Source: Heteronotia binoei (taxonomy: Eukaryota). Taken from it: a stretch of 64,000 bases of DNA. Numbering within the stretch: position 1 is the stretch's first letter; each line of letters begins with the position of its first letter. The stretch is taken from positions 74,896,001-74,960,000 of the forward strand of contig NC_083235.1 of NCBI RefSeq assembly GCF_032191835.1, written 5' to 3'. Below the pieces are notes generated by a model. That model was not told the DNA's origin. It did no database searches and was given only the letters and a program-made list of their open reading frames with translations. Positions 3,842 to 62,111 of this stretch are shown piece by piece. The translations under genes and the position numbers were made by a program.

Positions 3842-3959
3842 CATTGGTATAGGTGTTCACATAGTACCTGCGGCCCTGGGGAGACATATAACTCTGCCAG
3901 CCAGGAGGGAGATGGCCATTCTGAGAGTCTTCTGTCTGAGGAGTGATTTTCCTAGGTTT
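3842..3959 (-). CDS. GAS7: GAS7 internal coding exon (first part of WW domain), phase 0 to phase 1
   Basis: Translates KPRKITPQTEDSQNGHLPPGWQSYMSPQGRRYYVNTYTN, matching mammalian GAS7 KPGMVPPPPGEESQTVILPPGWQSYLSPQGRRYYVNTTTN (recalled). Bounded by ...TCTGTCAACAG acceptor and ATG|GTAAGT donor. Confidence 0.93.
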
Positions 3960-6499: not shown

Positions 6500-7917
6500 A
6501 AATTACTGACCTGGTTATTCTGCAAGAATGAGACTGATTTAATAGCTCCATTCAATAAACCTGGCCATCTTAAAAGCAAAAAACTGAAAGCGCAATCACA
6601 GACGATTCCTAAAAGAAGAAAACATGGTAAAAGCCTAAAGAAGCTGAGTTGGCTCCATAAACAGCTCTCTAAAGACCTGAGAAATAAAAAAGATTCCTTT
6701 AGGAATTGGAAGGAGGGCCTTATAACCAAAGATGAATATAAACAAATCACCAGTGCTTGTAGAGAAAAAGTTAGGAAAGCTAAAGATCAGTACGAGCTTA
6801 GGCTGGCCAAAGATGCTAAAAACAACAACAAAAAAGGTTCTTTTCTTCTGTTCAAAGTAACAAAAAGAGCAAGGACATGGCAGGCCCACTGTGAGGGCAA
6901 GAAAGTGAAATTGTAACAGGTAATGAAGAGAGGATGGAACTGCTTAATTCCTACTTTTCCACAGTCTTCTCTTCTGAGGGAAACAGTGCTCAAAACAGAA
7001 CATATAAAGAGGGTATGAAGTTCCAGCCTAGAATCAGCATAGGGGTAGTACATAAACACCTAGTTTCTTTAAATGAAACTAAGTCTTCAGGGCCAGATGA
7101 ATTGCATCCAAGGGTTCTAAAAGAGCTTGTGTATGTAATTTCTGAGCCTCTGACTATTATTTTTGAGAATTCTTGGAGAACAGGAGAGGTGCTGAAAGAT
7201 CGAAGGCGGGCGAATGTTGTCCCCATCTTTAAGAAGGGGGGGGGGGGAGAGGATTCGGGTAACTACCGACCCGTCAGCTTGATGTCTATACCTGAAAAAG
7301 TTTTAGAACAAATCAAACAGTCGGTCCTGGAACATTTAGAAAGAATGGATGTGATTCTTAAGAGCCAGCATGGGTTTCTCAAGAACAAGTCATGTCAGAC
7401 TAACCTGATCTCTTTTTTTGAGAAAGTGACTTCCTTGCTGGATCAGGGGAATGCTGTAGACATTGTTTATCTTGATTTCAGTAAGGCTTTGATAGGGTTC
7501 CACATGCTATCGTTGACAAGTTGGTAAAATGTTGTTTGGATCCTGTTACCATTAGATGGATCTGTAACTGGTTGACAGATCGCACCCAAAGAGTGCTTGT
7601 GAATGGCTCCTCATTCGCTTGGAGAGAAGTGACAAGTGGAGTGCCTCAAGGATCTGTCCTGGGACCTGTTTTGTTCAATATCTTTATAAAAGATTTGGAT
7701 AAAGGAATAGAGGGAATGCTTATTAAATTTGCCGATGATACTAAATTGGGAGGGGTTGCAAATACAGTAGAAGACAGAAACAGGATACCGGATGACCTTG
7801 ACAGGCTGGAAAACTGGGCTAAAATCAGTAAAATGAATTTTAACAGGGATAAATGTAAAGTTCTGCATTTAGGTAGGAAAAATCCAATGCATGGTTATAG
7901 GATGGGGGAGACTTGTC
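6500..7917 (+). mobile_element. CR1 LINE ORF2 internal fragment (linker + RT), frameshifted
   Basis: Motifs KSSGPDELHPRVLKEL, NYRPVSL, QHGFLKNKSCQTNLI, VYLDFSKA, SGVPQGSVLGPVLFNIFI, KFADDTKLGG, FNRDKCKVLHLG across ORFs 6934-7527 and 7521-7940. Ends abruptly after GET. Confidence 0.95.
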
Positions 7918-8571
7918 CCAGAACACCGCCATTTTACTAGCTAAACAGAAACAGCTTCAAGACAACATGAAGTATGACCAACAATACAAAAAGGTGTAGC
8001 ACAGACCAGTTACGGTACTGAAAAATAGATCACTGATCATTTACTTAGTCTTGGCAAAGTAGAACCTCTAGCTAACATCCATCTGTGTATGTCTGTCCTT
8101 GCAGAAAGTGAGAAATGGAGCATTTTACAAAATACTGCTCAGCACACAACCCAATCCAGATATGTACATATGTTGTTTTACAAAAACACAATGTGGGGGC
8201 TTCTGTGTGCCAAAAAGCTAAACTATACATCAACTAGCTTGAAGAAAATAATTGGAGCTTCACAGATGGTTACAGAAATTATGCACAACTTAGAACAGAA
8301 GAATTTTAAAGTAAGGATTCTGATGTTTCGGTTAAGGAGATCTGTAAACAAAGTACAAAGTATGTGGCTGTAGGATACAAATCCAGCACTAATAACAGCA
8401 ATTTATTAAAACATATAAATAACTACTGTAAGATAACAAACAACATTGTACATCTGCTTTATTCAATAGAAATTCAAAGGTTCCCCTCAAGCACGACACA
8501 TTGAGTATAGCGATAAGGCAATAATAAATCCAGTTCACAACTCCTCTTGGAATTGTAAGATAAGAATAATC

Positions 8572-8572
<1 letters not shown>

Positions 8573-8645
<73 letters not shown>

Positions 8646-8660
8646 AAGAAGAAGAAGAAG
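8573..8660. repeat. Compound microsatellite (AAT)n(AAG)n
   Basis: About 14 AAT units directly followed by about 15 AAG units. Confidence 0.97.
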
Positions 8661-8970
8661 GTAAAGATGTCTTCTGACCTTCTCCTCTGGCCAAAGAGTG
8701 TGACTTACCCGCCTAATCTAATCAAGACCAACTGACCACTACTGTGTGTGAAGGAGCGCTGTGATTAGTTCCCATCGGCCATGTGACTTGCTAATCCAAT
8801 AGAAATTCTCCATGAATTGTAAAGGTAACCAGGTTCCATCCATGTGACTGCAAAATCCTCCCCTTCCTTTCTCCTCCCACACAGACTCAGAGAAGAAGCA
8901 GCCATAGTTTCAGGAAGCACATGGGAAAGAGGGTAAGTAGTTTTTCAGAATACACTGCAAATTTTTTTTT

Positions 8971-9200
8971 TAAAAAAAACAGCAGCCAGTAAATATGGGG
9001 CTAACTATCCTAGCAATTTTTTAAATGCTGCCAGATTTAATCAGAGTGCAGACCCCTTCCTCTCTCCCTTGCAACACCCCCCTTCCCAAACTTTACAATA
9101 AAAAACAACAGCCAGTAAATATGGGGGCTAAGCATCCTAGGAATTTTAAAATGCTGCCAGATTTAATCAAAGTGCAGCCCCCCTTCTTCTCCCCCTTGCA
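8971..9200. repeat. Two diverged direct repeats of about 125 bp
   Basis: CAGCCAGTAAATATGGGG...ATGCTGCCAGATTTAATCA.AGTGCAG occurs at about 8983 and about 9108. Confidence 0.85.
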
Positions 9201-9372
9201 ACCATCAGCCCTTCATTTCATGGTGGCATTCCTGGGCATGTACTAAAAACACTGATTTCTTTAAAACGGTTCTTTTTTATTTACAGGCTTTTTTCATTTA
9301 CAGAGTTGCAGTCTATTTAGAAGGTTTATTTCAAAAACAGACAGTAAAAGGCAGCTGCAATCTCTCTTTTAT

Positions 9373-9822
9373 TTACATCACAGAAATGCCATTTTTTTTC
9401 TGGTGCAGAAAAAAGGAATGAAAATGCAAATCTTTGATATAGCCTTGAACATATTTAACCATTGCACTGACAGTTGGAGACGTGTCAAATTTGCGCAAAA
9501 CTCTTGAAACAATTTTGAAAATTGTTTCAAGAGTTTTGCGCAAATTTGACGCGTCTCCAACTTTATTCAATAAATCAAATATTTGGTCCATATTCTCTTG
9601 AGTGAAGAGCAGACATTTCAATGAATAGGCAACCGAGGTCACAACTTGCATTATCGAATGTATTGACATTTCATCAATTACAAATTTCACCTTGCGGTTT
9701 ACTATTTGTTCAGACCAAGAAACACATGCGTGAGATTTCTGCCCGGGCGATTGAAGCTGGCATAGACCGCAGCACGAACTAATGCTGACATCGCTGATTT
9801 CCGTTTTCGGGGTGGTATACAG
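9373..9822 (-). CDS. 149-codon open frame with putative Zn-binding motif CGLCQLQSPGQKSHAC
   Basis: I extended the ORF-track frame upstream by hand to the TGA at 9823-9825. Motif at 9724-9771; stop TAA overlaps AATAAA. No ATG before the motif. Confidence 0.45.
   Translation of the reverse strand: MYTTPKTEISDVSISSCCGLCQLQSPGQKSHACVSWSEQIVNRKVKFVIDEMSIHSIMQVVTSVAYSLKCLLFTQENMDQIFDLLNKVGDASNLRKTLETIFKIVSRVLRKFDTSPTVSAMVKYVQGYIKDLHFHSFFLHQKKNGISVM
9472..9562. repeat. 91-bp near-perfect palindrome
   Basis: 45-bp arms around a single G at 9517, with one mismatch (GACGTGTC vs GACGCGTC). Confidence 0.95.
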
Positions 9823-9834
9823 TCAGAATCTTTT

Positions 9835-10248
9835 TCAGTTAAAAGCACTATGCAAAGTCTGTTTCCAATAACCTTTTCTACTTCCCCACCCCACTATCCC
9901 CCTTTCCCAAATTACCTGTTTCATAGAGTTCTCGCTTGGAATCAGCTCTTGGGAATCAGGAATCTCTTGGAAAACCTGGGTGCTGTAGGGAATAAGTTCC
10001 TGAGTGTCTGGGAAATCTTCCAGGAGGCCTTGCAAAATTTGGGAAACGCCATTTTTAGCTAGCATGTCAGCTGTTGTCTCCCCGCTGTCCATACTAACGC
10101 GTGTCTCTGTCAAAAACACGCCCCGGGAATGGAGCTTTGCAGGAACAAATTCTTCATCCTCAGAACTGTTCACATATCTCCTTTTAAAATTTTGTCTCAC
10201 CAATGGCAGCGGGCTTGAAAGTACCAAGGGTCTGGCCGGAGTTTCCAT
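9835..10248 (-). CDS. ATG-initiated acidic, SQ/TQ-rich ORF (METPARPLVLSSPLPLVRQ...)
   Basis: ATG at 10248 in good Kozak context (GACATGG), repeated DTQELIP/DSQELIP motifs, basic KRR followed by acidic SSEDEE. Same frame as the downstream ORF. Confidence 0.45.
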   Translation of the reverse strand: METPARPLVLSSPLPLVRQNFKRRYVNSSEDEEFVPAKLHSRGVFLTETRVSMDSGETTADMLAKNGVSQILQGLLEDFPDTQELIPYSTQVFQEIPDSQELIPSENSMKQVIWERGIVGWGSRKGYWKQTLHSAFN

Positions 10249-10519
10249 GTCCTCAGCAAGAGCCTGTGCATGTGTGTTCAAGCACAAATGGCTTCTTTCC
10301 TAAAATAACCTGGTGGGAGTGGGGGTGGGGCCCCCCAGCCCATTTGCTTTTGACCAGAGGTCAAACACTAGGCGTGTTGTTAGAAGGGTCACATGGACCT
10401 ACTCAGGCCTTCTCAGTGGCGGACCCCATTTTCCGGGGTGGGCTGCCACAGGCGGAAGTTCAATGACGCTGCAGTGGGTGGTGCTGGAGAAGGAGGAAGG
10501 GGAGGGGGCTACACATGTG

Positions 10520-10960
10520 ATTTCTGTCCTGCTCAATTAATATGCAGGGTTACTACGTCACAGCGGGGTGGACGTAGACGTTGATTGGCCTAGCTACGCC
10601 ATGTGGTGTGAGTCAGTAAGGCCATTTCCTGGAGGAGGTGCTTAATTAATTAAATATGCGGGGTACCTACGTCATGGTGGGGCACAGATGGTGATTGGCG
10701 GGGCTAGGTCACGTGGGGGTGGGGCTAGTCAGGACACCTCCTTGTGGGAGGTGCTTAATTAAATATGCGGGGTGCCTACATCATGGTGGCACCCCCAAAA
10801 TAGGTCACTTCCATCCTCCATTTGACACAGTTTCTGGTCACGACTCTGGGGTCATGACCTGGGTGATGTCATTGGGGTCATGACCCTGATGACGCAGTTT
10901 CAGGTGACGTCACCGGATGTGACCTCACTGGCCACACCCCCTTCATTAATAATGTGTGGG
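10520..10960 (-). promoter_or_regulatory. Dense promoter/enhancer motif cluster with three ~40-bp repeats
   Basis: TTAATTAA(A)TATGCGGGGT-like unit at about 10533, 10640 and 10752; CCAAT (ATTGG) twice; GC/GT boxes; TCACGTG; TGAGTCA; TGACGTCA with adjacent CCGGATGT. Confidence 0.55.
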
Positions 10961-11945
10961 GGGGTCTATTTGCTACTAATATGCATTACACAAGCATGGA
11001 AATTAATATTACCCTGTCTAGGAGAACAAACTGGCTTATCCATAATTCATAACCATGGTATCAATTCTGTCCGCACAGTAACTTACACATGCAAAAATGC
11101 AATGCAAATCCATTATGCTGATCTATACTGGAATCCTTTACTCATATGCCTTAGGATCTCATGTCAGTTTCTACATGCAGGCATCAAGAAGAGCACCTAG
11201 TATTATTTTTTATTTCCTTTCACAGCAGGAGACTGCAGGATGCTACAGTTTGTTAAACTTGAGTATTGCAATAGCAGTATTGCGCGCATAAGTGTAAGGA
11301 ATCATGGCAAGAACCTTTACCCTTGCAGCAAAAATCTGATTAAAAAATAACCTTGCCCTCCAAACTCTGGTCCTAAGAATCAGTGTTTTATTTTATCAGT
11401 CTGATTTTGCTTTAAATCCTAACCATCAGTTTCTTGTTGGCAAGCACATTTGCCCCAACATTTGTTACATTTTTCCAAATACAAAGAATTCATTCTCCCA
11501 CACAAGTCTCAATGTTCTTTTCCATTTCCCAGTATACTTCCCACCCCACCTCCACTCCAGATGCCAGGACCTGCCCTCTCTGCAATGCTTGGCCACCTGC
11601 ATTACAACAATTTAATAGATGCAGCAGTAGGCACTTAATAAAGACGCTTTGAAACACGCCTTCTTTTTTATAAGTGTGCTTCATCTTAACAATTCACAAA
11701 ATTAGCTACATCCTTCACCCTTCAGTTATTCCTGTTTGTTTCAACCAAAGCTCTGTGAATTATATAATGACGAGTCCTGCCCCAGACTCACACAGCATCA
11801 AAGAAGGTTCAGAGAACAGAGGTGACCAAAGATATAATTATGACTAAGCCTGAAGATGAAGGGTGTCAATGGTATCTAGACACATTTTGTTTTTCCTCTA
11901 AATCATCAACACATCTTGTTTTTCCTCTAAATCATGCCGTCTTAC

Positions 11946-34500: not shown

Positions 34501-35759
34501 CCGCTAACCATTGAAACTAGGTAAATGTTTGTTGTTGCTTTTTTAAAAAAACCATCTAAGCAAGGACAGTTGGGTTTGCATTAGGAGCTGGTGCAGAAAA
34601 TCAAGATGCTGCATTCTGTGGAACTGAGTCCCTGTAAGAATATTCCATCTGGACCCATATTTGGATTTCTCTCATGCGCAGTGTCTCACTTCAATGTTGA
34701 ATTTGGAGAAGTTTGTCTTCTACCAGGTGAGGCTTACTGTCTGGGGAAGAGTAGAGGAAGCTTCACTGTGTTGCTTGAATTACCAATACAATCAGAAAGT
34801 ATTGGCTCTGTCAACACCATTATGTGATACACAATGTGTTTGGATTTTAGGGACGAAGGGCCACAGCTCCAGTGGTTTTGAGCAGGCATCAGAATGCCAG
34901 CTTGGTTAAAATTGAAACAGCTCTCAAGTAGGATTTGACCAGAGAAGCTAAATCTAGTTGTACTATTGAGACCTGGTTGGATGAGGTGGGAGAAGTAAGC
35001 CATTCTTAGCTATGCCCACCAGGAATCTTAGTGGTACAGCAGCCAAGAACCAGTGGCCAGGGAGGGAAATTTATTTAGTTCATTTGTACCCTTTCTTTTC
35101 TCACCAATACAGACCCAGAACGGCTTTCTCTGTTCTTGTCTTCTCCATTTTATCCTCCTTCATAGGTTAAGATGAGAAATTATGACTGGCCCAAGACCAC
35201 CCAGCAAGTTTCTATGGCATGAGTGGGGATTCAAACCCAGATCTCTCAGATTCTAATCCAACACTTGGGGCGGATCATTGGTGAAATGCCACTTCTCAAG
35301 TCAACTGTCTCCTACCTGAACTTCAGGAGGTGATGCTGGACTTGGTGCTGAGGCCATGAAGATGAGGTGACCTCAAAATATATGCTGAGGCTCCTCAAGT
35401 AGCAGTGGTTCAGGACTTTGTGGCCACTATAACATCAGAGCTCTATCTAAGAACATCTAAGATCACGTGAGCCACACATGAAGCAGGTCATACTCTCACT
35501 GTGGTATTCTGTTCTGATCAAAAGCAAGATGGTTTGAAAGTGGAGGAATTTTAATCTACTCTGTTGTTATGATAGTTTCTTTACCAATTTACAGAGGAAT
35601 TCAAAAGGTTGAGAGGGGGCTAGTCATTCACAGGCTGATGGCTCCACATAGATTCCAAAACATCTCTCCCAGTCATAGCTGCTGGCAGTCATAGCTGCTG
35701 ATTTGCTGTCACCACTAACAAGAAGGCCTATTAATGTACTCTGACCCATTTTTAACCAT

Positions 35760-36025
35760 TACCGTTTTCGCACACAGCTTACCTCGCAGTCACAATCCTG
35801 TTCCCTCCGCAGCATCCGGTCGGATTTCGGACCTTCTGCGCCGGAGTTACAGGAAGTGCCGCAGCTTCTGTGTAGCAAACGTAAACTGTGTTTTAGCGGT
35901 TTACGTTTGCTACGCAAAATCCGCAGCACTTCCTGTAATGTCGGCGCAGATGGTGCGAAATTCGATCGGACACTGCGGAGGGAACAGGATTGTAACTGCG
36001 AGGTAAGCTGTGTGAGAAAACGGTC
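35760..36025. mobile_element. Fold-back palindromic MITE (possibly PIF/Harbinger)
   Basis: ACCGTTTTCGCACACAGCTTACC...GGTAAGCTGTGTGAGAAAACGGT; self-complementary over about 266 bp; possible 3-bp TSD CAT. Confidence 0.85.
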
Positions 36026-38173
36026 CATGTTTGAGTGGATTCATCTTGCATGTGCCTCTATTTGCGTTCTTTATAGGTCATTGTTTCATTTATTCTCTCC
36101 CTTTTATTCTTCACTGTTGGTTTGAATAGGATTTTAAGTGGGTGCTGAGAGTTTTTGTTAAGCATTTGGGTGGAAAAGTGGGATTAAAATATTTTAAATG
36201 AAGTAAACACTAGCGTTGCATGTGTGGTCCAGTATAAACTAATAAATGCAGGTTTATGATCTTCAGGGAATTGATATGGGGGCAGTCTACAAATAAAAAG
36301 GGTCAATGGCACTGCTCTGACAATAGATAGTCTAGAAAAACAGATGTGGCGTGCAAAAACGATTAAGTATACAGGCTTGTCAATCCACACTTGAAACTTA
36401 ACAAGCTGTTTCATCTTACAAAAAATTTCTGAAGAATTTAGGTATTATTCACCTACATAAAACATCCTTCTTACCTCTTTGTGAATGTCATAAACATTAC
36501 TTAGTGAAGATTTCCACTGAAGTGTGTATAAAGTAAATTAAATAAATATATCAAATAAAATTCATTAAGTGTGGAGTTGCAACTCATTGGGGGGGGGCAC
36601 CGTTCTTTTATATTGCTTCTCCTGTCCCTCCCCCAGGATGCTCTCCCTTTTTTCACCCTCCCAAGTACTTTCTCTTGATTCTCCTGCTTCCCATCCAGCT
36701 GGCACATTTCTCCCCTTTTCATCAGCCACTGATTCTCTTGTTTCCCTTACCCTTAATAGCCTCCTCCTCCTGGGTTCACCCAGCAGTGACACCTCTCTCA
36801 CCCTCCTACAGCCTCTTCCTTTCCTCCTCTACTGCTTTCTCCTGTTGCTGCCATGCCAAGTACATGTCTATCTTGAAAGGGGGGGGGGGGAGTTCCTTTA
36901 GTAGGAATATTTACAAATACTTAAAGATCAGGATAAACTAAACACTATGCAGGACCAAGAGTATTCCTATGCAGGAATCTTGATACATGTTGAATTTATT
37001 GATGGCAAATATATATATTTTTTTCTTTCCGACAGTAAGAATAGAATGCCAAAATAAAAACTAGTCAGAAACCTTCAAAGAAAAGGGAACTAACCCTCTG
37101 CAGAATTACAGAAGCTGTCAAACTACATTATTTTAAAAACTCTACACTTATTAATTTTTAAAGTGAAATTATGTAAACAGAACATAATCTACATATACAA
37201 ATATAAGGAAAGGGTGTGTACAGTCTAGTAAGCGGTATAATAAGGACTGAACAAGCCACTAAATTCACAGCTATGACAAAATATTACTTTGCAAGCATGG
37301 AACTGTTCTATGAACAAGAGACAAACCACAAAAGGAAACTAAAGAGGTCAGAAATATGGGCAGGAAATAACAAAAAGAGATTCAGCTTGGAAAAATGCAG
37401 CTGGGGGGAAATCAGCCAAACAGAACTATTCAGAGTAAGGGAAGTCTTGGGGGGGGAGGGAATACAACACAATTATTACATTTATAACCCAACCCACCTT
37501 GCAGCTGGAGAGCATGTGTCCCTTGCAAAAAGAAATGAAGAGGGAGGCAGAGAAAGTGAAATCATACTTTAATACATGAGGAAAGCATCCTATAGAAAGA
37601 AACCTATTTTAGCTTCAGTAGCTTCATTGTTGGCTGGATGATGGACTTCCACCCCCAGCTCCAAGAAGAAAAAAGCCAGTAAGGGCTGTGAAACAATATT
37701 CTAGCAGCTTCTGTGCATGAGTGCAGTATTAGTTCAATGCAATTTAGGATTGACATTCCAGTTCAAAAGTTTACACAGCCTGGTAAGCATGACCAGTTTT
37801 GTTTTGTGTGTGTGTTTTAACTTTAAAGAATACTTTTAATATGACGGATGATCTCCTTGGGCTCTTTTGCTAATATTCTCTATGGATGAACAGCTGGCTT
37901 TGTTGCTTCCTTTTTTTCCTCTCAGAGCTCCTCCACATTACTCAATTTCATACCTTCCAACATTTCACTACAGAAACAGGTACAGTTATGAGGATGAGTG
38001 GGTGGAGCTAGGGCAGAATCCAGGAGCCTAAAAGAAAAAATTGGCAAAAAATGGTGCAGGCCAATACAATCCACGCTCAAATGTACCAAAGCAGAAAGTG
38101 GTAGCTAAATGTGCTTGAAACTAGGTGTCTTCCCACAGCAAAAGCTAGGGGACAAGCTACAGACCACCAGGCT

Positions 38174-40647: not shown

Positions 40648-41568
40648 TGTTAACAGTTTAACCAATGTAATTTGGGTAGAATGTTTTTATGTGTTATTGC
40701 TTTTTTTGGTATTTGTATTTCATGCAAGATATAAATATTTTAATAAAGAAATAAAATAAAAATATCCTATCATTTAAGATGATCAATGCTGGGAAAAACT
40801 ACAACTTCAGAGGCCACCTGAAGTTGTTTTTTTCAATTTAATGACTATTTATTTAGACATTATTTAGGATACTTCTATGCCACCTCTTCAGAGTCCTGCT
40901 AAAGGCAGCTCACAATTAAAAGTTTGTATTTCTAACTGAAGAAATTAAATATACCTTCCTCAAAACGTGTAGATTTGGTTCAGAGTATTATAGCAGATTT
41001 TGTTAGAGAACTGAGTATGGAAACACAGCTTTCTAATTCCACTTCTACCTCCACTTCTGTGCTACCTCCATTTAATATGTAGCAACAACTCATACTAAAA
41101 TAGCCTTCTACAGAAAGAGGCAGTGCCTTTATTTGGAAGCATATGGGTAAAAACTAGATTCAATGGAAACAAAATCAAGAACAAAGAGCTTCCCCTTTCT
41201 CCCTCAGGAAAAATTCAGTGGGCATCTGAAGAGTGTTTCATATAGATTGTCCTCCACCCCATGCATAAAATGCATAAAGAGTCGTTTTTCTACAAACTAA
41301 ATTCCTAATAATAATGAAGCTGGTGGTGCTACATAATTTTTGCTCCCCCTTCCCAAGCTCAGGTTTTGCCATATGCCAACTGCCAGACTCTTTCTTCCCA
41401 AGTATATCACTTGGCAAAGAACAGTAATATAAAACAATGTTTCTTGTTAAATATTTAGATTTGAGACCATCCCATCCTGAGGGCTCATAGTATACAAAAG
41501 AAAACGGAAATGAAATCTCATAGTGAAACAAGTCTCCACACTGAGTCAAAAGCTCTAAACATTTTAAG

Positions 41569-41688
41569 CAGAGCTTTTTTTGAGCAGGAACACAAAGGAA
41601 CACAGTTCCAGCTGGCTTTGTATCAGGGGTGTGTGGCCTAATATGCAAATGAGTTCCTGATGGGTTTTTTCCTACAAAAAAAGCCCTG
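41569..41688. mobile_element. Short hAT MITE (CAGGGCTTTTT-type TIR)
   Basis: TSD ATTTTAAG/ATTTTAAT; relatives at 49453-49651 and 20857-21030. Confidence 0.8.
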
Positions 41689-42202
41689 ATTTTAATCATG
41701 CATTTGATTTTTACCCTGCTTTTGCTATGCTATGGGAACAGTGAACCTGAGAGCACACTAGGGATGTGAATCCAAGTCACAGTACACACAGGCTGTGTAT
41801 ACTCCAGGAGATGGTTCAATCAAGAGCATACCTATAGCATTCAGTGGGGTTTTTTGTATGCCTAAGAACAAAATGTTAACCAAAATATAAAAGTTAAACC
41901 ACACTAAAAATAATACCGAATAAAACTATAAATTTCAAATTTAATCAGTTGTCTCACCACGTGGTCCAGAATTGATCAAGTAAAGTCAGAGCCTCTGTGC
42001 CAAGAGTTGTGTGTAGTGCACTGAAACTGGTGCTCAGCTTAAAAATGCTAGGAACCAGATGATGCAATCCTGGCCCAATCAAAGCACATGATGTAATTAG
42101 AACAAAGGTAATGAGGGAAGATAAATTGGAAATTACAGGTACATTACAGGTAAAATGGAAAACTTAAAAAGCTACAAAAATAATTTCAAAATTTTCTCTC
42201 CA

Positions 42203-44670
42203 TTATACACAAAACCAATCAATTTCCTCATTCAAACCATGAGGTGTTAAAGCCCCTAGAGTGTGAATCCAAAATGTTCCTCTGGCCTTCAGACGTTGCG
42301 CAAGCTGTAATTTTGGAGCATGTATTTGTTCCAAGACAAAGACCTGCAGGTGCTTATCAGAGTGATTTGATGAAGCCCAGTGTTTCACCAAGGGAGCATA
42401 CTTCCTTTGAAGACGGAGGTTACTTCTGCGCTCACAAATCCTGGTTTTCACAGTCCTAGCCGTATAGCCAATGCACATTAAGTCACAGCAGATTATACAA
42501 TAAATAACAGATTTGGAATTACAATTAAGGAATGACTTAATGAAATACTTCTTCTGCTTGGTAGAGTCAAGAAAAGAATCAGTGCAACGCATTAAAGTGG
42601 AAATAGAACAGCCCCCACATGGAAAGCTCCCTACTGGTCTCTCCCTGCCATCCACTCCCCTCTGTCTTGTTTGAATGGATTTTAATCTGCTGTTAACTAA
42701 AACATCCTTCAAGTTCTTAGATCTCCTATATGTAAAAAGGGGAGGAGGGCGGCATCTGGGAACCTTGGTGAGGAGATGCCAGTGTTTCATATAATTTCCT
42801 TTACCTGTCTTGACCTCCCATCAAATGTTAAGGGGATAATTCGTCTCTCAGTTTGACTTTGTCTAGTTTTAGGTGCCAATAAGGATGACCTGCAGGTATT
42901 TTTTGCTTTGTGATAAGCTTGTTTAACTATTCTGGAGGAGTAACCTCTCTCCCTAAACTGTCCCATCAATAAAGAAGCCTGTTTAACAAAATCAGAGTAC
43001 TGGCTGCAATTTCTTCTCAGTCTCAGCATTTGAGAGTATGGTAGATTCTTCTTTAAATGTTGGGGGTGGAAACTGTCACTGACAAGTAAGGAATTAACAT
43101 CAGTTGAGTTTCTATAAGTGTCAGTCTCGATCACATTGCCCACTCTCTTCACTACCACATCCAGAAAATTAATGGCAGGAAGGAAGTACTTCTTCACCCA
43201 AAGGGTGATTAACATGTGGAATTCACTGCCACAGGAGGTGGTGGCGGCCACAAGTATAGCCACCTTCAAGAGGGGTTTAGATAAAAATATGGAGCACAGG
43301 TCCATCAGTGGCTATTAGCCACAGTGTATGTGTGTATATAAAATTTTTTGCCACTGTGTGACACAGAGTGTTGGACTTGATGGGCCGTTGGCCTGATCCA
43401 ACATGGCTTCTCTTATGTTCTTAATGGTATTTTTATTACAATTCATCTCAAATTTAATACTATCATGTACACGATTGATGAATTGTTGAAATTCAACCAG
43501 TAGTTCTGAGACTCTCCATATTAAAAATATATCATCCAAAAATCTTTTATACATAATGATGTTGTTTACATAAATGTTATTATCATTCAGGATATACTTG
43601 TTTTCACAATTGTTCATAAACAAATCTGGCAACTCTGGTGCAAATTTACAGCCCATAGCTGTCCCAGATATTTGCCAAAGAAACTTATTTTGGAATTGAA
43701 AGTAGTCTCTCTTTATCTCAGCTGTTTGGCATAGGAATGCAGCAGGAGGGTTAGTTGGATCCTCTCTCCCATCACATGTTATCTGCAGTACCTCCAAGGC
43801 CTCTCCCTGAGGTATATTAGTATATAATGAGACTACATCAAAAGTCACAAATAACATGTCTTCAAAATCCATTCTTATTTTACTGATATGTCCTAAAAAT
43901 CCATTGTATCTTTCAAATAAGTCCTGGTTTTGGAAATGAAAGGTTTTAAAAAACTATCAAGATAACAAGCTAGGGGTTCAAGGATTGAACCACATCCTGA
44001 GACGATGGACCTCCCAGGTACTGGCATGGTCCTTTTATGAATCTTGGGCGGGAGGTAAAATTGTGGAATTCTGTTATCTGACTGTAACAGGAAATCATAG
44101 ATGGATCTTGTTATATACCCTATAAGGAAGGCTTCATCTAATACCTTCACAATTTCTTTCCTGATTTCCAAAGTAGGGTCCTCCTTGCTAATCCTATAGT
44201 GAAGGCTATTGTTCAGTGGTCTTTCAGCTTCTTTAATATAATCCACTCTATCCCATACAACCACTGCTCCCCCCTTATCTGCCGGTTTATATACTATATC
44301 CTCATAAGACATAAGTTTTTTCAGAGCCTCTACTTTCACTGTGGTCAAATTATGCCATACTCTCACCTCTGTTTTATACATTTCATTTAAATCTTCCAGA
44401 ACCATCTCCTGGAATGCCATAACCCTAGAGTTTTGTGAGGGGAGGATTAAAGGTGGATTTTGGCTTAAATTGTACCTCTGTATATATTCTGGGTTCTAAA
44501 TTGTTCTTAAAGTGATCAGCTAGTCTTATCTTCCTGAAAAGGTGTTGAATTTCAATCATGAGTTTAAATTCATCATGCTTGGGAGTGGGAACAAAGGAGA
44601 AACCTTTAATAATTTGACCGCAATGGGTTCCTAGGAGTGAAAGCAACTGATTTACTAGGGAATCCACAAA
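42203..44670 (-). mobile_element. Penelope-like retroelement (Neptune-type), RT + GIY-YIG endonuclease, decayed
   Basis: GFSFVPTP; KPADKGGAVVVW; PQFYLPPKIHK; FDVVSLYTNIP; GTAMG; RFLDDIF; INFLDV; LPYSQMLRLRRNCS; Cys linker FPCGGC; VIYCI...IGYTAR; FWIHTL...PHGLN. Pieces lie in different frames. Confidence 0.95.
43176..43420 (+). mobile_element. CR1 3' end inserted in the Penelope RT
   Basis: RKYFFTQRVINMWNSLPQEVV...FKRGLD tail; TTAATGG duplicated at 43169-43175 and 43421-43427. Confidence 0.92.
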
Positions 44671-46513
44671 AGCCTCAATAAATATATTTACTCATACGCA
44701 AGGCTAGTTTTTCCCCAAGGGATATATTTACAAAAAAATTAGTTATTTCTTGTATATATAGCCCTTTTAGGAGATGTTATCTTCCTTGCAAGTAAATATG
44801 GCTACGGTCTGTCTCTCACGCTTTCTTTCCTCTCTTCCTCCATCCTATCTCTGAGGATGCTGAGGAGGCACAGCAGACTCCACCCTTCACTGCCCTATTC
44901 CCAGCAACAGCAACAACCCTGTGAGGTAGGCCAGGCTGAGCAGCCAGCCCCAAGTGACCCAAACAATAGGTTCCTGGCTCAGGAGGAGGGTGGTCTGAAC
45001 CTGGCTGTCCCAGATCCCCCTACCGCTAGTTCTCATCCCCCCCATATTTCCCACAGAAGTGATGGGGCTGAGGGGAAGGCCTAGGGATGCCAGTTCCCAG
45101 GAGGCAGCGAGGGTCCCCCCAGTTTTTAGGGCTTCCCCCAATGCTGGCCAGCTGACTGCCAGGGGGAAGCCCCATCCCCAACAGTTGTCTGCAGCCCTGC
45201 ACAGCAAGAGGTGAGTTCGCCTCTTGCAGGGCAGGCACATGCGGCACCCTCTCTTTCCAAGCAAGGGTTGCCAGCTTCTGCCTGACAAGAGGCAAATTTA
45301 CCTCTCACTGGGCAGGCATGCGTGGGGTGTGCACAAGCTGTGTCCTGGAGGTGATGATGTCACTCTTTGTGATGTCATCATGTTGGGGATGGCCACACCC
45401 CTCCTGGAACGCCCCCAAAATCCCTCCGCTAGATTGGACCTGGCAACTCTAAGAAGGCTGTTTCAAAAACCTCCAAGGGGTGTTTTTGTCATACTGTGAC
45501 CCCTTTTGTGTTGTGGTCTGAGAACAGGTGTGTGGGAGAAGGGAGGCCACAGTCCCTCAGCCGCCCTCCCAGTTTCGCAGCTGTCCAGGCGTGCAGCGGT
45601 GCTCTTCTTTCCCTTTGCTCCTCTGCTTGCTTCCAAGGCAAGACATCTTTCCCCTTAGAGTGGCACACACAAGATAGCCCAATTGCCTCCCAATCCACGT
45701 GCTGTCCTCCTCCTCCTCCCTCCTCTGCTAGCCACATCCCTTCATCAGCAAACCCCCACTCTCACCATCTCCTCTCTCAGTTGCTGTTTGGAGCACATTT
45801 GAAAGCAAATTTGTTTCCACTCCAGTAGGAAATCCCCCTACAATCCCCCTACAAGACTTACTGATTCATGTATCCTGCGTAGTTCTTAGTTTATAACATT
45901 TTGAAGTTCTTCTGTCTTCCCATAGCACATCTAAACCTTCTTTGGGATGCCACGTAGAGTGTGGATTATGCCAGATGAATGGACCCTTGATTCCTCCCAG
46001 AGTGCTTGCTTTTTCCAAAATCACTACAGAGGACACGTTCCCTCCCACACACACACCTTGCCTGTTTTTGAATTGCTAACATGGCTGTCCTGGTATCTAA
46101 GGCAGGAAGCAGTTTTTTCAAATGTGAATGATAACCAGATAAGCAAGGACTATTTACCTGAAATCCAACAGATGTGCATTCCTCTGTTTCTATTAGGCTT
46201 CCTAATCCCCAGGTCCCAGTGGGGGATCCCCCGGTTTTACAGGCTTCCCCTCGCCCGCAGCCAGCTGGCCGGTGGGGGAAGCCCTGCCCTCACAGCCACC
46301 ATGCAGCTCTAGATCTTGGGCAGGTTTAGAAATGTGTGTGTGTGTGTGCCTTTAAAGTTGAGCAGGAAGTACTTCATGGGAAGGGTCAGCAACACAGTCC
46401 CTCGGTTTGTTTTGCTTTTGTTTCAGAGCAAGAGTGTGTGTGTGTGAGAGAGAGAGAGCGCAGTGTAGCCCCTGTTCTTTTCAGATGTGGTTGTGGAGGA
46501 ACTAGACCCAGTA

Positions 46514-55553: not shown

Positions 55554-56875
55554 CACCTAAAGCATAAGCTTTGCACACTAACCAATAATACAACTACATT
55601 CTCACATCATGACAAGCCTCTGTAACAAGTGCAAATATTGGCTGTTTGCCATGCTGGTCCACTCCCTCCTTTCTCCTCCTCCATGTCTCCTCTAGCACAA
55701 CTGGAAGCTTGCAGGCTTAGGAAGGCTTTAATAAAACTCCAGTTTGCTAGAAGGCCTGAATACTGATTTTCCTTCCTCCCTGCAAGCCAGGATTTTAAAC
55801 ATCGGAAGGCAATGGCAAACAAAAGTCTCTTGCCTTGAAAACCCTATATGGTCACCATAAATCGGTTGCAACCTCACAGCACTTCACACCCACACACAGG
55901 GGTTATAATCCCACTATACAGGGAGGAAACCATCTCCAGTTTGCCCACCATAGGGATGCAAGCCTCCAGGTGGGGCTTGGGGATCTCCCAGTATTACAAC
56001 TAATTTTCAAACTACAGAGATCACTTCCCTCGGAGAAAAGCACGGGTATCAAACATAGTTGCCCAGGGGACAGAACTGGCCTGCCCAGGGCTCTTATCTG
56101 GCTCGTGGGCAACTGCTGTGAAGGAGGCAATAGGAGGCTGCTTTGGGGGGTGGTATCAGTGGGCAGAGCAATTGTGGCTTCAGTACAATGGAACAACCTT
56201 GTCTGCAGCAGTCAAGCACAATCCCTTCACTTCAAGAGCAGCCTCCCTGATAAGCTGGGAGTCACTGTAGCTGCATTCATGCCAGCTCAGGGGCCCAAGG
56301 AGAGGTCACGTGCCTCTTCACTTGGCCTGTAGCTCCATGGATGCAGTCCTGGATGGCTGCAGGGATCAGCATTTGCATGTGGGGAACGCAGAGAATCCTC
56401 TGCTGAAGCCACCACCGTACTTGCACTCCCCCCCCCCCCCCAGCAGCTTTGCTTTGGCCCATGGGAAGCAATTTCCTGCAGTTCCTTCCACACATCAGGG
56501 GCTTAGTCCTACTACCAAGCATGCAGCTCATCAGCCTGGCCTCCCTCCCCCATGGAACATCCAGAAGCCTTCATCGGCAGATACCACACGGGGGGGGGGG
56601 CAGTGCTGGCAATCTCCAGCCTGGGTGGCCTAGGGCCTCTGCCACACAAGCAGCTTTCTGGGCGCAGTGCCCCCTCCCCCATCAGATGCTCTGGCAGCCT
56701 TCAGCCTGGGTGGCTGTTGTTGCACGGGAGTGGCATCACTTGCCAATGATCTCTGGCTTGAACTCCCAATACTGCCCGGCATTGGATCACCTGCCAGCCT
56801 CGGCTGGAAGTGGCAGCTGCTGCATGGGTGTCTCCAGCTTATCAGGCTTTGCTTGGTCTGGGTCCCATCATGCAT

Positions 56876-58115
56876 TGCGGAGTGCCTCAGGGGGCAGTCC
56901 TCTCCCCGATGCTGTTTAACATCTTTATGCGCCCCCTTGCCCAGATTGCACGGAGGTATGGGCTGGGTTGCCATCAATATGCAGATGACACCCAGCTCTA
57001 TCTATTGATGGACGGCCGGGCTGGTGATGTCCCAGCAAATTTGGACCGGGCACTACAAGCCGTGGCTGACTGGCTCAGGCTGAGCGGGCTGAAGTTGAAT
57101 CCGGCGAAGACTGAGGTCCTTTGCGTGGGCCGCGGCGGACCGGGAGGGGAGACTACTTTACCGGCCTTTGACGGTGTGCCACTGGTACCGGTGCGCAAAG
57201 TCAAGAGCCTGGGGGTGCTACTGGAGTCCTCCCTATCAATGGAGGCCCAAGTAGCTGCCACTGCTAGATCCGCCTTCTTCTATCTCAAGAGGGCGAGGCA
57301 GTTGGCCCCCTTCCTGGAACGCACCGACCTGGCAACTGTGATCCACGCAACGGTCACTTCGAGGTTAGACTACTGCAATGCCCTCTACATGGGGCTGCCC
57401 TTGTACCGAACACGGAGACTCCAGGTAGTCCAGAACGCGGCGGCCAGGCTGCTGGAGGGACTACCACGGTGGGAGCCTGCACGGCCTGGGCTGCGCAATC
57501 TGCACTGGCTGCCGGTTGTCTACCGTGTTCGCTATAAGGTGCTGGTTATTACCTTTAAAGCCCTATATGGCCGAGGACCTGCCTACCTAAAGGACCGCCT
57601 CTCCCCATATGTACCCCGGAGAGCACTGAGGTCTGGCTCTCAGAACTTATTAACAATCCCTGGGCCAAGAGAAGTTAGGTTGAAGGCCACTAGGGAGCAG
57701 GCCTTCTCGGTGATAGCCCCTCGCTGGTGGAACGACCTCCCAGAGATGGTGCGAGCCCTGCGGGATCTGAACCAATTCCGCAGGGCTTGCAAAACATTTC
57801 TTTTTCAGTTAGCATTTGAGTCACCATGTGGCAACTAAGACGGAACCTGATTAATGAATGAACAGACACTTAACCATCTTAAATACATCATTTTAGCACC
57901 TATTTTTATATCTTATATGTTTATATGTTTTTATGTATTTTAAATAATTTATTGTAATTAATGTTTAAGTTGTTATGTTTTATGAATCACGGGACTCCCA
58001 TGTCTATTATTGTTTAATGTGAATCATGAGACTCCCGTGTCTGTTAGCCGCCCTGAGCCCGCCTAGCGGGGAGGGCGGGATATAAAAATAAAATATTATT
58101 ATTATTATTATTATT
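56876..58115 (+). mobile_element. Young 5'-truncated L2 LINE (RT C-terminal half, 3' UTR, (ATT)n tail)
   Basis: Uninterrupted CGVPQGAVLSPMLFNIFM...HQYADDTQLY...LKLNPAKTE...VKSLGV...SRLDYCNALY...LHWLPV...FKTFLF; TSD ATGCAT at 56870-56875 and 58116-58121. Confidence 0.95.
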
Positions 58116-58878: not shown

Positions 58879-59437
58879 TGCCCTGGCAGGGGCTCTCCCC
58901 TCTCTCCTCCAGGCCACTTGCACAGGGAGCCCAACTCCGCTAGCTGCTCGATCTCTCAGTGGCCAGGGCCTTGCTCTGCTGAGGCGGCCCCTGGGACTTC
59001 CCTCGCTGGTTGACTACGCAGGAAGGAGGGAACCCTGTGCTTCCTTCCTTTCACTGCCTCCTCCTGCAGGCTAGCAAACAAGAAGGAATAAAGGAAATGT
59101 TAGGCAGACAATCACCGCCTAGCCACATGCCACATGCTTCCTTCCCCTCTGCTGCCTCCTCCTCCTGTGGGCTGGCAAGAGAGGAAGAAGGGGGAAGCCA
59201 TGGTGAAGGAGAAGCCCAGCAGACAGTTGCTGCCCAGCTGCGTACCCCACGCTTCCTTCTCCTCAACCAACACCTCCTTCTGCTGGCTGGCAAGCAAAGG
59301 GGGAGCCATGGTGAAGGAAAAGCCTGGCGGACAGCTGCCACCCACCCGTGCACCCCACATTTCTTTCCCCACCGCTGCACCTCCTCCTGGCGAGTGAGGG
59401 GGAGCTGCTGTGAAGAAGAAGCCCAGCAGGCAGTCAC

Positions 59438-59852
59438 TTATCCTCTGCTGCTGCCTCCTACTGCGTTTCCTTACCCTTTGCTTCTGCCTCCTACTGCGTT
59501 TCCTTATCCTCTGCTGCTGCCTCCTACTGCGTTTCCTTACTTTTTGCTGCTGCCTCCTACTGCATTTCCTTATCCTCTGCTGCTGCCTCCTACTGCGTTT
59601 CCTTATCCTCTGCTGCTGCCTCCTACTGCATTTCCTTACCCTTTGCTGCTGCCTCCTACTGCGTTTCCTTATCCTCTGCTGCTGCCTCCTACTGCGTTTC
59701 CTTATCCTCTGCTGCTGCCTCCTACTGCGTTTCCTTATCCTCTGCTGCTGCCTCCTACTGCGTTTCCTTATCCTCTGCTGCTGCCTCCTATTGCGTTTCC
59801 TTATCCTCTGCTGCTGCCTCCTATTGCGTTTCCTTACCCTTTGCTTCTGCCT
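59438..59852. repeat. 33-bp minisatellite, about 12.5 units
   Basis: Unit CTTATCCTCTGCTGCTGCCTCCTACTGCGTTTC with few variants. Confidence 0.97.
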
Positions 59853-62111
59853 TCTCCTGCAGGCTGGCAAACGAGGAGGAGGGGAGCTGCAACAATTCCA
59901 GAGAAGGATGGCAGCCTGGCAGGGCAGGGGCAGACCTGGGGGTTGGGATGCCAGAGAGGTATGCAGTGAACTTTGCTGCCATAGTGCTGCCACCTCCCCA
60001 TTGGAGTCCTGGTGGTTGGAAGGGGCTGGTTGCTCTGCATGGGTCCTCCACTGACCCGATGCAATGATGTCACTTAAGGGTGATGCCAGCACACCAAAGA
60101 CATCCCTGCCCAGTCCTGGAATGCCCCCCCAACCCCCCCACCAGCAAGACAAAGAGACTTGGCAACCCTACCATGGGGCCTTACAGTGAGGAGACACAAA
60201 CTCAAAGCTTACCAGCTGTTGTCCTTTATAAAAATTTGTCTCTCCAGTACCTGACATTACATTTTATGGCACATTGGCCCAGCCCAACAAAGAGACGTTT
60301 ATGACAGATCTGGCCTTCGTAACAAATGAGTCTGACACCCCTGCTTTAGAAGATAGACTCTACAGCCCCACATTGTGCCCCACTGGGGGCCCTCTCTTCC
60401 CCAAGCTCCACCCCCCAATATCCAGGAGTTTCCCAACTCAGATGGCAACGCAGTGGCCAGGTGAACCTAGTTATTGCCAGGGCATCTGCATTAGGATGGC
60501 CCTAAACTGTCCTAGTTTAGGATAGTTTAGGAATGAGAAAGAGAAAATACATCTTTTAGCATCATTTGCAAAACCAACCAAACTCCATATTATGATACAC
60601 AGAACCACTTTCTAGGATTTCCCTTACCATCCAGAGGAATGCATGTTTCTTTTGTGCTTGGTACCATATTCCACCACTTACATTTTGCTTACTTCCAGCG
60701 AAATACAAATCTCAGCATATATCTAAACACTTTCATACAAAGCCATGATGAAGCTATTCTTATACAACAGTGAATGAGCCCCAGCGGCTATCTCTGTGTT
60801 ACCAATTAAAGAGAGTTAATTCCATGGCCAGACTCTATTCTGCAGAGCAATAGAAAAGAAATCAATTTACTTGAACTCTCTCCTAAACAACAGAGGAAAA
60901 TTTTTATTTTCCATCACAAGTCCAGATTTCCTCTTCAGTGCCTCAGATGTAGGGTACTGAGGTCAAAAGCTTGCTGAAGATAAAAGAATGGTGAATCTCA
61001 CTTACAGAAAATGGTGTCGGATTATATAACAGATACATAGATAATATAGATATACATACATACACACACACACTCTATGTCAGATATACTGTCAGTTAAT
61101 TTTTGCCACTCAGCTGCAAAAACATCTGAATTGATTTATGCATTGAAATACCATAGCACACTGGAGCATCCCCACCCTCAAAAATGATACTCCTATGAAG
61201 GAAGATGGGGATACTGGAAATGATGAATAATTTGAAATAGTGAGTCCAAATTTATTGTAACAACTTTAAAAAGATATAAAATGATAGAAAGGCAGATGTC
61301 TTAAGGCTGCCAACTCTTGGTTGGAAGATTCCTTAGAGATTTGGAGGTGAAGCCTGGGGAAGGGGAGGGACCTCTGCGGGATATAATGCTAGGCCAATAT
61401 GGAAGCAAGAGAGGTCTCTTCAAACAAGAGTGATGAGACTGGGCTTCATTTTTAGCGCTAAAGAAGTACTTTTTCCAGCTCAGAATCACTAATGATATAT
61501 TCTGTCCGCACACAACAGACAAGGGCAGGATGGAGGAGTAATACCGCAGTGAGCTGCTCCATTAATTTTGTTTTTAATTCGGAGCTGCAGACACTGACAC
61601 TGGAAAATTTCCAAAATTTCTAAAGCCTAAGAACTCAACCACACACATACTCAACTGTTATTCCCCCACTCCCCCCTCCCATCAAAAATAAAGCTTTCAA
61701 AACAAATATTAGCCAGTTCAAGCACCACACTTGTAACCTGAAGGAAATAGGTGCACTGGCAGGGAGAACAGTCTCATCACAAAATGCTACAAATTCACAC
61801 TAAGAAACTCTGCGTTAGAACTTACACCACAGCTCACTAACAACCAAATGCACCCTTGCCTTGATGCAAACTGCAGTGCTGATTTGGGTCAACAAATTCC
61901 AAACAGCTCACTAGTTTCTTGCCTCCAGCCTGCATTTATCTATATCTGCACTCAGACATCATTAGTAAAAATACGCAAGAACGAAGTTTGTAATTGGGCT
62001 AGAACCCACATGCCTTCATCCTACGGTAATCAAAGTTAGTTTCCAGCCACAATTCTCCACGTAGGAAGAAAAGGTGGAGGGTTGAAGCACACGCGTATGT
62101 TGAAAAACAAG

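Follow-up and report, generated by a model that had tools for sequence, protein, structure and literature searches.

What kind of sequence is the island at 8661-10977 in a presumed GAS7 intron of the gecko Heteronotia binoei, and is it derived from a Maverick (Polinton) element? We analysed a window of 64,000 nucleotides (RefSeq assembly GCF_032191835.1, contig NC_083235.1, positions 74,896,001 to 74,960,000 of the forward strand), and all coordinates below are counted from its first letter. The original prediction, made from the letters alone, had regarded the island as one end of a Maverick/adintovirus-type element from which the core genes were gone. Our analysis supports this proposal, based on an end motif at a sharp boundary, published Maverick termini starting with AGTAG, and two turtle records connecting the adjacent gene with a Maverick polymerase. 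We estimate a probability of about 85% that 9235-10977 is what remains of one end of a Maverick of the beta-adintovirus type in a gecko. A decayed gene, homologous to one carried by Mavericks, lies at a Maverick-type end, and a Maverick-derived fossil is thus the likely identity of the locus, with carriage by Mavericks deduced from the two turtle records. The locus is a fossil fragment and not a complete Maverick, because it was found to contain neither a polymerase nor a second terminal repeat nor a target duplication.

A probable Maverick-type end at the right limit of the island

Contigs of two public runs, X1 and X2, were aligned to 8665-11800, with the left flank outside the aligned range. 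X2 is an RNA library, where the presence of a contig was not taken as expression, and the contigs of both runs inform on neither copy number nor expression. In total, 18 and 37 contigs of the two runs aligned to the island, with identities ranging from below 90 to above 99%. Depth in at least one run was observed in 18 of 22 bins within the island and in none of the eight bins past 10974; the four depth-free bins within the island carry no weight. The predicted right limit of 10977 was borne out exactly, both by this sharp coverage edge and by the motif found there, while the predicted left limit of 8661 could not be established.

The motif in question is AGTAGC (10972-10977, minus strand), matching five of the six letters of the Maverick end AGTAGT. 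At the position where the window has GCTACT, an X1 contig has the exact ACTACT, followed by a different flank. Vertebrate Maverick ends are of the type (AGT)2//(ACT)2 or (AG)3//(CT)3, and squamate Mavericks with AGTAGT/ACTACT ends include that of the gecko Paroedura (PMC8097293). Among 30 of the 370 supplement rows, which represent lepidosaur Mavericks, repeats are present in 12, of which 11 start with AGTAG (PMC8097293). In the window, the motif coincides with an abrupt edge of the repeat, which supports an end of the Maverick/adintovirus type.

Inward of this motif, a terminal non-coding region with promoter-like motifs (10380-10977, minus strand, inner limit approximate) likely represents one terminal inverted repeat. 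Its length fits both the published range of Maverick terminal repeats, 46-1447 bp (PMC8097293), and the 584-bp terminal repeats of the Anolis carolinensis Polinton (Novick et al. 2011, PMC3014272), which supports the terminal-repeat reading. The region contained TGACGT four times (shuffle mean 0.19), GTCAC[AG]TG twice and a TTAATTA-type word six times; these counts are inflated by tandem units, and each was reached by 0 of 300 shuffles. We take these motifs to be cAMP-response-element-like (CRE-like), E-box-like and TAATTA words, respectively. CCAAT and the GC box were not enriched in the region (reached by 95/300 and 150/300 shuffles). The promoter-motif cluster of the original prediction is present, with the former three motifs enriched.

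The internal tandem repeats noticed earlier were also found, as three units of ~110 bp and two of ~126 bp. The former (10535-10865) share a 35-nt core, and contig joints within them, which lead back by 110 or skip 146-240, indicate that unit number varies among related copies. Closer to the end, a sub-terminal unit of ~72 bp (10890-10962) is single in the window and double in a related copy, as seen from a contig joint 10961->10890.

As had been stated, no second terminal inverted repeat is visible: nhmmer with 10300-10977 found in the window only the query itself and a weak internal palindrome, and a motif search for the partner end in the window gave chance-level matches only. As for a 6-bp target-site duplication, the right-flank hexamer recurs only within internal units (8992, 9118, 10539, 10653 and 10762), the opposite end being missing. 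The terminal 211 nt folded no better than shuffles (z -1.7), and a parvovirus-type end hairpin was therefore rejected.

Both runs contain numerous divergent variants that vary in unit number, as might also be expected from an amplified non-autonomous Maverick derivative, composed of ends and one gene and moved in trans, whose far end was lost here. This would be compatible with Maverick origin, and it agrees with the mere two to three core-gene loci published per gecko genome (PMC8097293). However, contig depth is not equal to copy number, the window does not contain a second end, and such Polintons were reported absent in Anolis (PMC3014272). We consider such a derivative rather unlikely.

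A broken, probably accessory gene beside the end

Two compact same-strand open reading frames (ORFs) had been predicted in the island. Both are indeed present on the minus strand, counted from ATG at 9835-10248 (137 amino acids, aa) and 9373-9669 (98 aa); however, they are pieces of one broken gene, since gecko proteins span both. P0001 of Heteronotia binoei (269 aa) aligns to 10092-9394 and P0002 of Gekko japonicus (342 aa) to 10251-9376. The aligned gene falls into three ordered pieces, 10251-9916, 9878-9759 and ~9762-9376, which occupy two frames. The 5' piece (9916-10251, minus strand) contains much of the first ORF and encodes a basic and acidic-serine motif with a low-complexity linker; its identity is 95% with P0001 (over 59 aa) and 46% with P0002 (over 89 aa). 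The middle piece (9759-9878, minus strand) lies in the other reading frame (65% over 40 aa to P0001; family hidden Markov model, HMM, E 1.5e-6). The 3' piece (9373-9762, minus strand) encodes the rest of a zinc-site-like motif and a helical domain, with 79% identity to P0001 (phmmer E 1.6e-48; family HMM E 1.4e-36).

The window copy has thus undergone two frame changes, and it lacks stretches found in relatives near 9916-9832 and ~9762, where the cysteine motif starts. Together with the alignment of relatives across both ORFs, this indicates that the window gene, as far as sequence can tell, is a single pseudogene in three pieces. The same changes speak against two separate working mini-genes or an exapted gene, as does the fact that relatives possess a single ORF and that the ATG of the second ORF is an internal codon of the 3' piece, aligned to an internal Leu of P0001. 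Although neither ATG ORF is interrupted, the frame is preserved by the fold-back described below and polyadenylation signals are intact, we find this alternative hardly credible.

The gene ends at 9276-9375 (minus strand, i.e. in GAS7 sense) with a stop codon and three AATAAA signals (9368-9373, 9325-9330 and 9276-9281), a stretch that an X2 contig (9235-9399) joins to the gene end. The overlap of the stop codon (9373-9375) with the first of these signals was correctly recognized before.

A feature missed by the original prediction is a near-perfect palindrome within the gene (9472-9562), with 45-bp arms of which 44/45 positions are paired; the next best fold-back in the window has 15 bp. One of its arms is a frame-keeping fold-back copy, as the corresponding 12 residues are a gap in all 19 of 19 other rows of alignment A1, and an X2 contig skips the fold-back. 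It might have arisen by template switching in the window copy. In Rfam, the hairpin gave only below-threshold microRNA-type matches, on both strands; these were taken as an effect of structure, and microRNA identity was rejected. At 9700-9762, an X2 contig switches strand; in another copy, the gene thus carries a further local inversion besides the fold-back of the window copy.

The existence of a hairpin, together with a weak Pfam match to Shotoku_capsid (E 0.006; 16 bits, the cut-off being 27), brought a parvovirus- or anellovirus-like (Shotokuvirae) endogenous element into consideration. However, the capsid match is confined to the window's own sequence, one of 20 alignment members, and lies far under the cut-off, so that this identity was rejected; furthermore, the domain is predicted to be all-helical, and the hairpin is copy-specific and lies within the gene. 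The family assignment given below largely excludes the parvovirus reading, to which we attach practically no weight.

Relatives of the gene and their probable link to Maverick polymerase

A 149-aa stop-to-stop stretch was used as a phmmer query against 1.84 billion representative proteins. There were 24 matches at E<=0.001, of which 23 share the domain; P0022 was rejected as a family member, being a repetitive false match. P0009, P0018 and P0020 have an incomplete motif and were retained on the basis of the family HMM. Named relatives (16/23) all come from lizards or turtles, the remaining 7/23 are without name, and no named match among the 23 comes from a mammal, bird or fish. Several hosts contain multiple copies scattered over chromosomes, for example six near-identical members in Anolis carolinensis, 3+3 in Hemicordylus and three in Chelydra. 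In a tree of 23 rows, restricted to the conserved domain, the window sequence is sister to the Heteronotia protein (99/98), within a group of five rows that includes Gekko (96/98), a placement that points to a gecko-like host.

Two turtle records associate this family with Maverick polymerase. In P0018, a gene model of Chelydra, the family domain (65% identical to P0012) is followed by 99 aa that show 82% identity to PolB of the Terrapene box turtle adintovirus and 81% to a PF03175 polymerase of Chrysemys. The order of family domain and PolB is accordingly visible in this one gene model. The second record comes from Malaclemys, where LOC128839849 belongs to the family and LOC128839848 is a PolB piece with 94% identity to Terrapene PolB; the two have adjacent protein accessions and equally long contigs. 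Going by the usual practice in numbering such genes, consecutive ids would denote neighbours. In the turtle Maverick PolB models P0054, P0056 and P0064, we noticed 270-320 extra N-terminal residues that are unlike the accessory family. The accessory gene and PolB may be separated by a further ORF or exon.

As for the window itself, the original prediction had seen no PolB, integrase, ATPase or capsid. With 21 reptile PolB proteins, tblastn found no match at E<=0.01, and a PolB profile had no match among 2711 six-frame segments. Integrase, ATPase, protease and major or minor capsid had no Pfam match in all 125 frames of at least 88 aa and 46 shorter frames near the island, a scan in which dedicated profiles were not run and which left 83 of the 120 frames of 72-87 aa unscanned.

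Several observations weigh against a Maverick origin. Both polymerase links come from turtles only, and they consist of a gene model and of id adjacency, without coordinates or strand. No joint locus of accessory gene and polymerase was found in scans of viral contigs (for the family, PolB and end motif) or in metagenome contigs. The window contains neither a second end nor a target duplication at a boundary, and the end motif of its copy carries one mismatch. Directly at the end and past it, the word TAATATGCA (10977-10985) is identical to the core of the internal unit at 10538, and a similar word occurs in the flanking part of the X1 contig; this could mean that the real end lies a few bases further out. 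For both X1 and X2, only 6-7% of sampled words are shared, the runs being those of relatives. Finally, branching in the protein tree broadly mirrors the host groups, as would be the case for a host gene family. Besides, the two strands of the window together contain TAATATGC nine times; the TAATATGCA/TAATATGC words at the element end may reflect a preferred target, an end somewhat longer than assumed or mere coincidence.

The tree, along with the annotation of every named relative as an uncharacterised host gene, could be taken to mean that the island contains a decayed copy of a reptile host gene, or of a gene from another kind of transposon, beside which an end motif arose by chance. The multi-copy scatter across chromosomes, the two turtle records pointing to Maverick polymerase, the related copy with its exact ACTACT end and the restriction of named matches to lizards and turtles all argue against this explanation, which we regard as highly improbable.

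Predicted properties of the accessory protein

Family members are characterized by a zinc-site-like CxxC-x9-HxC motif followed by a helical domain, which is predicted to be all-helical. Among 33 proteins shorter than 400 aa, 30 contain the pattern CxxC-x6-Q-x2-HxC. A basic-Y/F-I-S-acidic motif of CK2 type occurs in 15/33, many records being without the N-terminal half, and LxCxE/D in only one of the 33. We predict that the protein of unbroken relatives acts early and in the nucleus, as a regulator. Its N-terminal half would be disordered and bear the basic and acidic-serine (CK2-type) motif, while its C-terminal domain would be helical and bind zinc. Binding to Rb appears improbable from these sequences because LxCxE is lacking. 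DNA or chromatin proteins are our preferred guess for putative partners, with about even chances of being right.

Searches for known folds and families yielded little. No Pfam family was common to at least two of 20 alignment members at E<=0.1, and an Npa1 match was rejected, being window-only and far under the cut-off. PDB sequences gave no match for alignment A1 or P0018, and Foldseek against PDB and viral models found nothing at E<=0.001. A word-index protein search returned nothing with the window segment and, with A1, only four members already known. In the ESM Atlas, there was no usable match for P0012 or the window segment (for the latter, best 0.86, RhoGAP, with low recognition). The REC lobe of TnpB, Cas12f and Fanzor2, for which solved structures exist, was compared for a shared fold beyond the common helical bundle. 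That the family could be a free-standing, zinc-bearing relative of the TnpB/Fanzor REC lobe, serving lizard and turtle Mavericks as a nuclear, DNA-binding regulator that reads the variable tandem units of the terminal repeats and spread in geckos via a short non-autonomous element, is a very doubtful speculation.

One Anolis gene model, P0031, joins a host-like N-terminal stretch, presumably cytidylyltransferase-like, to the family domain. This is likely a further family copy inside a host gene.

The accessory family was not described in the literature searched, a search that did not extend to the sequence files of Starrett, where the family may carry the label Oncoid or Adintoc. Two short family motifs are absent from the examined part of the supplement of Starrett et al. 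2021 (PMC8502044), and nothing on the family was contained in the parts examined of PMC10812802, PMC9683012, 10.1101/2024.03.25.586562 and 10.1101/697771.

The left third of the island

The island had been called CpG-rich. This applies to it overall, with an observed/expected ratio (o/e) of 0.40 against 0.24 in the remaining window and 0.24/0.14 in equal-sized flanks, a level attained by eight of 571 non-overlapping sliding windows. However, the surplus is restricted to 9400-10977, and the left part (8661-9400) has an o/e of 0.13. The claim that the island has no kin among the repeat families of the window was confirmed by a blastn self-comparison (E<=1e-4), with zero matches outside the island.

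Two direct units of ~126 bp (8974-9226), 88% alike over 104 bp and with slight X2 depth at 8980-9084, are a likely, if putative, part of the element. Further to the left lies a CpG-poor repeat (8661-8935, plus strand), in which CCAAT, a splice-donor-like site and a pair of E-box-like motifs were noted; its link to the Maverick part is putative. An X1 contig covers 8722-8926 of it with 28 differences. We also observed an exon-like stretch at 8885-8937 (plus strand), which follows E-box-like and CCAAT motifs, ends with AG|GTAAGT, and points toward the accessory gene, antisense to GAS7.

It is possible, at somewhat less than even odds, that the island is composite and that 8661-8935, maybe up to 9230, represents a separate repeat beside the Maverick fragment. 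Besides the low CpG ratio, this is suggested by the absence of any protein or polymerase match in the left part and by the lack of a contig bridging 8926 and 9235 among the 16 of 64 contig pieces listed. The inverted match of the left part to the right end is also at chance level (score 34, reached by 10/200 shuffles), and a decayed second terminal repeat at the left was rejected on this ground. On the other hand, a rare GTCACATG-type motif is common to the left part and the terminal region (two copies in each, against 0.05 per kb elsewhere), and the left part was found in the same two runs, of which 48 contig pieces are outside the listing.

A proposed history of the locus and its relation to known Mavericks

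Under the Maverick reading, a full-length element would have inserted itself, probably by means of its own integrase, at a site upstream of the exon for the GAS7 WW domain. The original order may have been end, promoter, accessory gene and polymerase, judging from the turtle records. The core and far end would then have been lost through deletion, which removed everything past the first accessory gene, and the remaining gene would have decayed to three pieces. The remnant is likely inert.

Published vertebrate Mavericks of squamates and turtles (Barreat and Katzourakis 2021, PMC8097293) resemble the window locus in the AGTAG- end, the long terminal non-coding region, the accessory gene beside the end, the degraded state and the occurrence in geckos. 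Accessory regions between ends and core are present in their maps (PMC8097293). Unlike them, the window locus has one end only, with no core gene or target duplication found, and a search based on core genes, as performed there, would therefore miss it. As for the beta-adintovirus of the Terrapene box turtle (Starrett et al. 2021, PMC8502044), turtle family members likely neighbour polymerase that is 82-94% identical to its PolB. Oncoid genes are located upstream of PolB (PMC8502044), and our family is similar to the Oncoid class in the CK2-type site and in CxxC, and may be so in this position; however, it differs from that class in the scarcity of LxCxE/D and in having one CxxC with HxC instead of paired CxxC. 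The Polinton of Anolis is a squamate element with fewer than ten copies and, unlike the window locus, with intact copies containing eight ORFs; an accessory gene is not described in the examined part of that paper (PMC3014272).

Gecko Maverick fossils are already in print, and 96% of vertebrate Maverick loci are degraded (PMC8097293); the element itself is therefore an ordinary viral fossil. The modest interest of the locus lies in its unnamed accessory family. Lizard and turtle RefSeq genes annotated as uncharacterised, such as LOC132583558, LOC107108088, LOC100558607 and LOC128839849, likely belong to a Maverick accessory family that spans squamates and turtles. Having neither a Pfam model nor a close solved fold, this family could serve as a probe for Maverick ends that escape core-gene searches. 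Copies differing in terminal unit number and local inversions also hint at how Maverick ends change. Furthermore, the relic lies in GAS7 sense and would bring three polyadenylation signals, promoter-like motifs and a 45-bp hairpin into the predicted pre-mRNA; a putative effect on GAS7 isoforms, if there is one, would therefore be testable.

Genomic setting and other features of the window

Placement in a GAS7 intron, as originally proposed, is consistent with an exon at 3842-3959 (minus strand), which matches the GAS7 WW domain (best match 2ysh, E 2.7e-11). The intron call hangs on this single exon, and other GAS7 exons upstream were not found within the window. Since this exon bounds the available space, the element would be smaller than ~7 kb. 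The space left of the island is occupied by the exon and by a broken reverse transcriptase of a long interspersed nuclear element (LINE) at 6895-7937 (plus strand; Pfam RVT_1, E 4e-17 and 5e-5), which we take to be CR1-like. An (ATA)n(AAG)n microsatellite (8560-8660, plus strand, from the tandem-repeat listing) forms the left edge of the island.

Elsewhere in the window, a series of long frames at 41241-44691 (minus strand), with a reverse transcriptase match at 43318-43953 and a cysteine-rich frame downstream that presumably resembles a GIY-YIG region, is likely a fairly young Penelope-like element. A 358-aa reverse transcriptase frame at 56762-57835 (plus strand), located inside the most CpG-rich kb of the window (o/e 0.65), represents a young LINE piece. 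At 35719-36122, similar peptides are encoded on opposite strands (35813-36002 plus, 35783-35972 minus), forming an imperfect palindrome or a pair resembling miniature inverted-repeat transposable elements. Finally, a 33-bp minisatellite at 59437-59860 (12.8 copies, 92% matches) has long open frames on both strands, and its Colipase-like Pfam match is likely an effect of composition.

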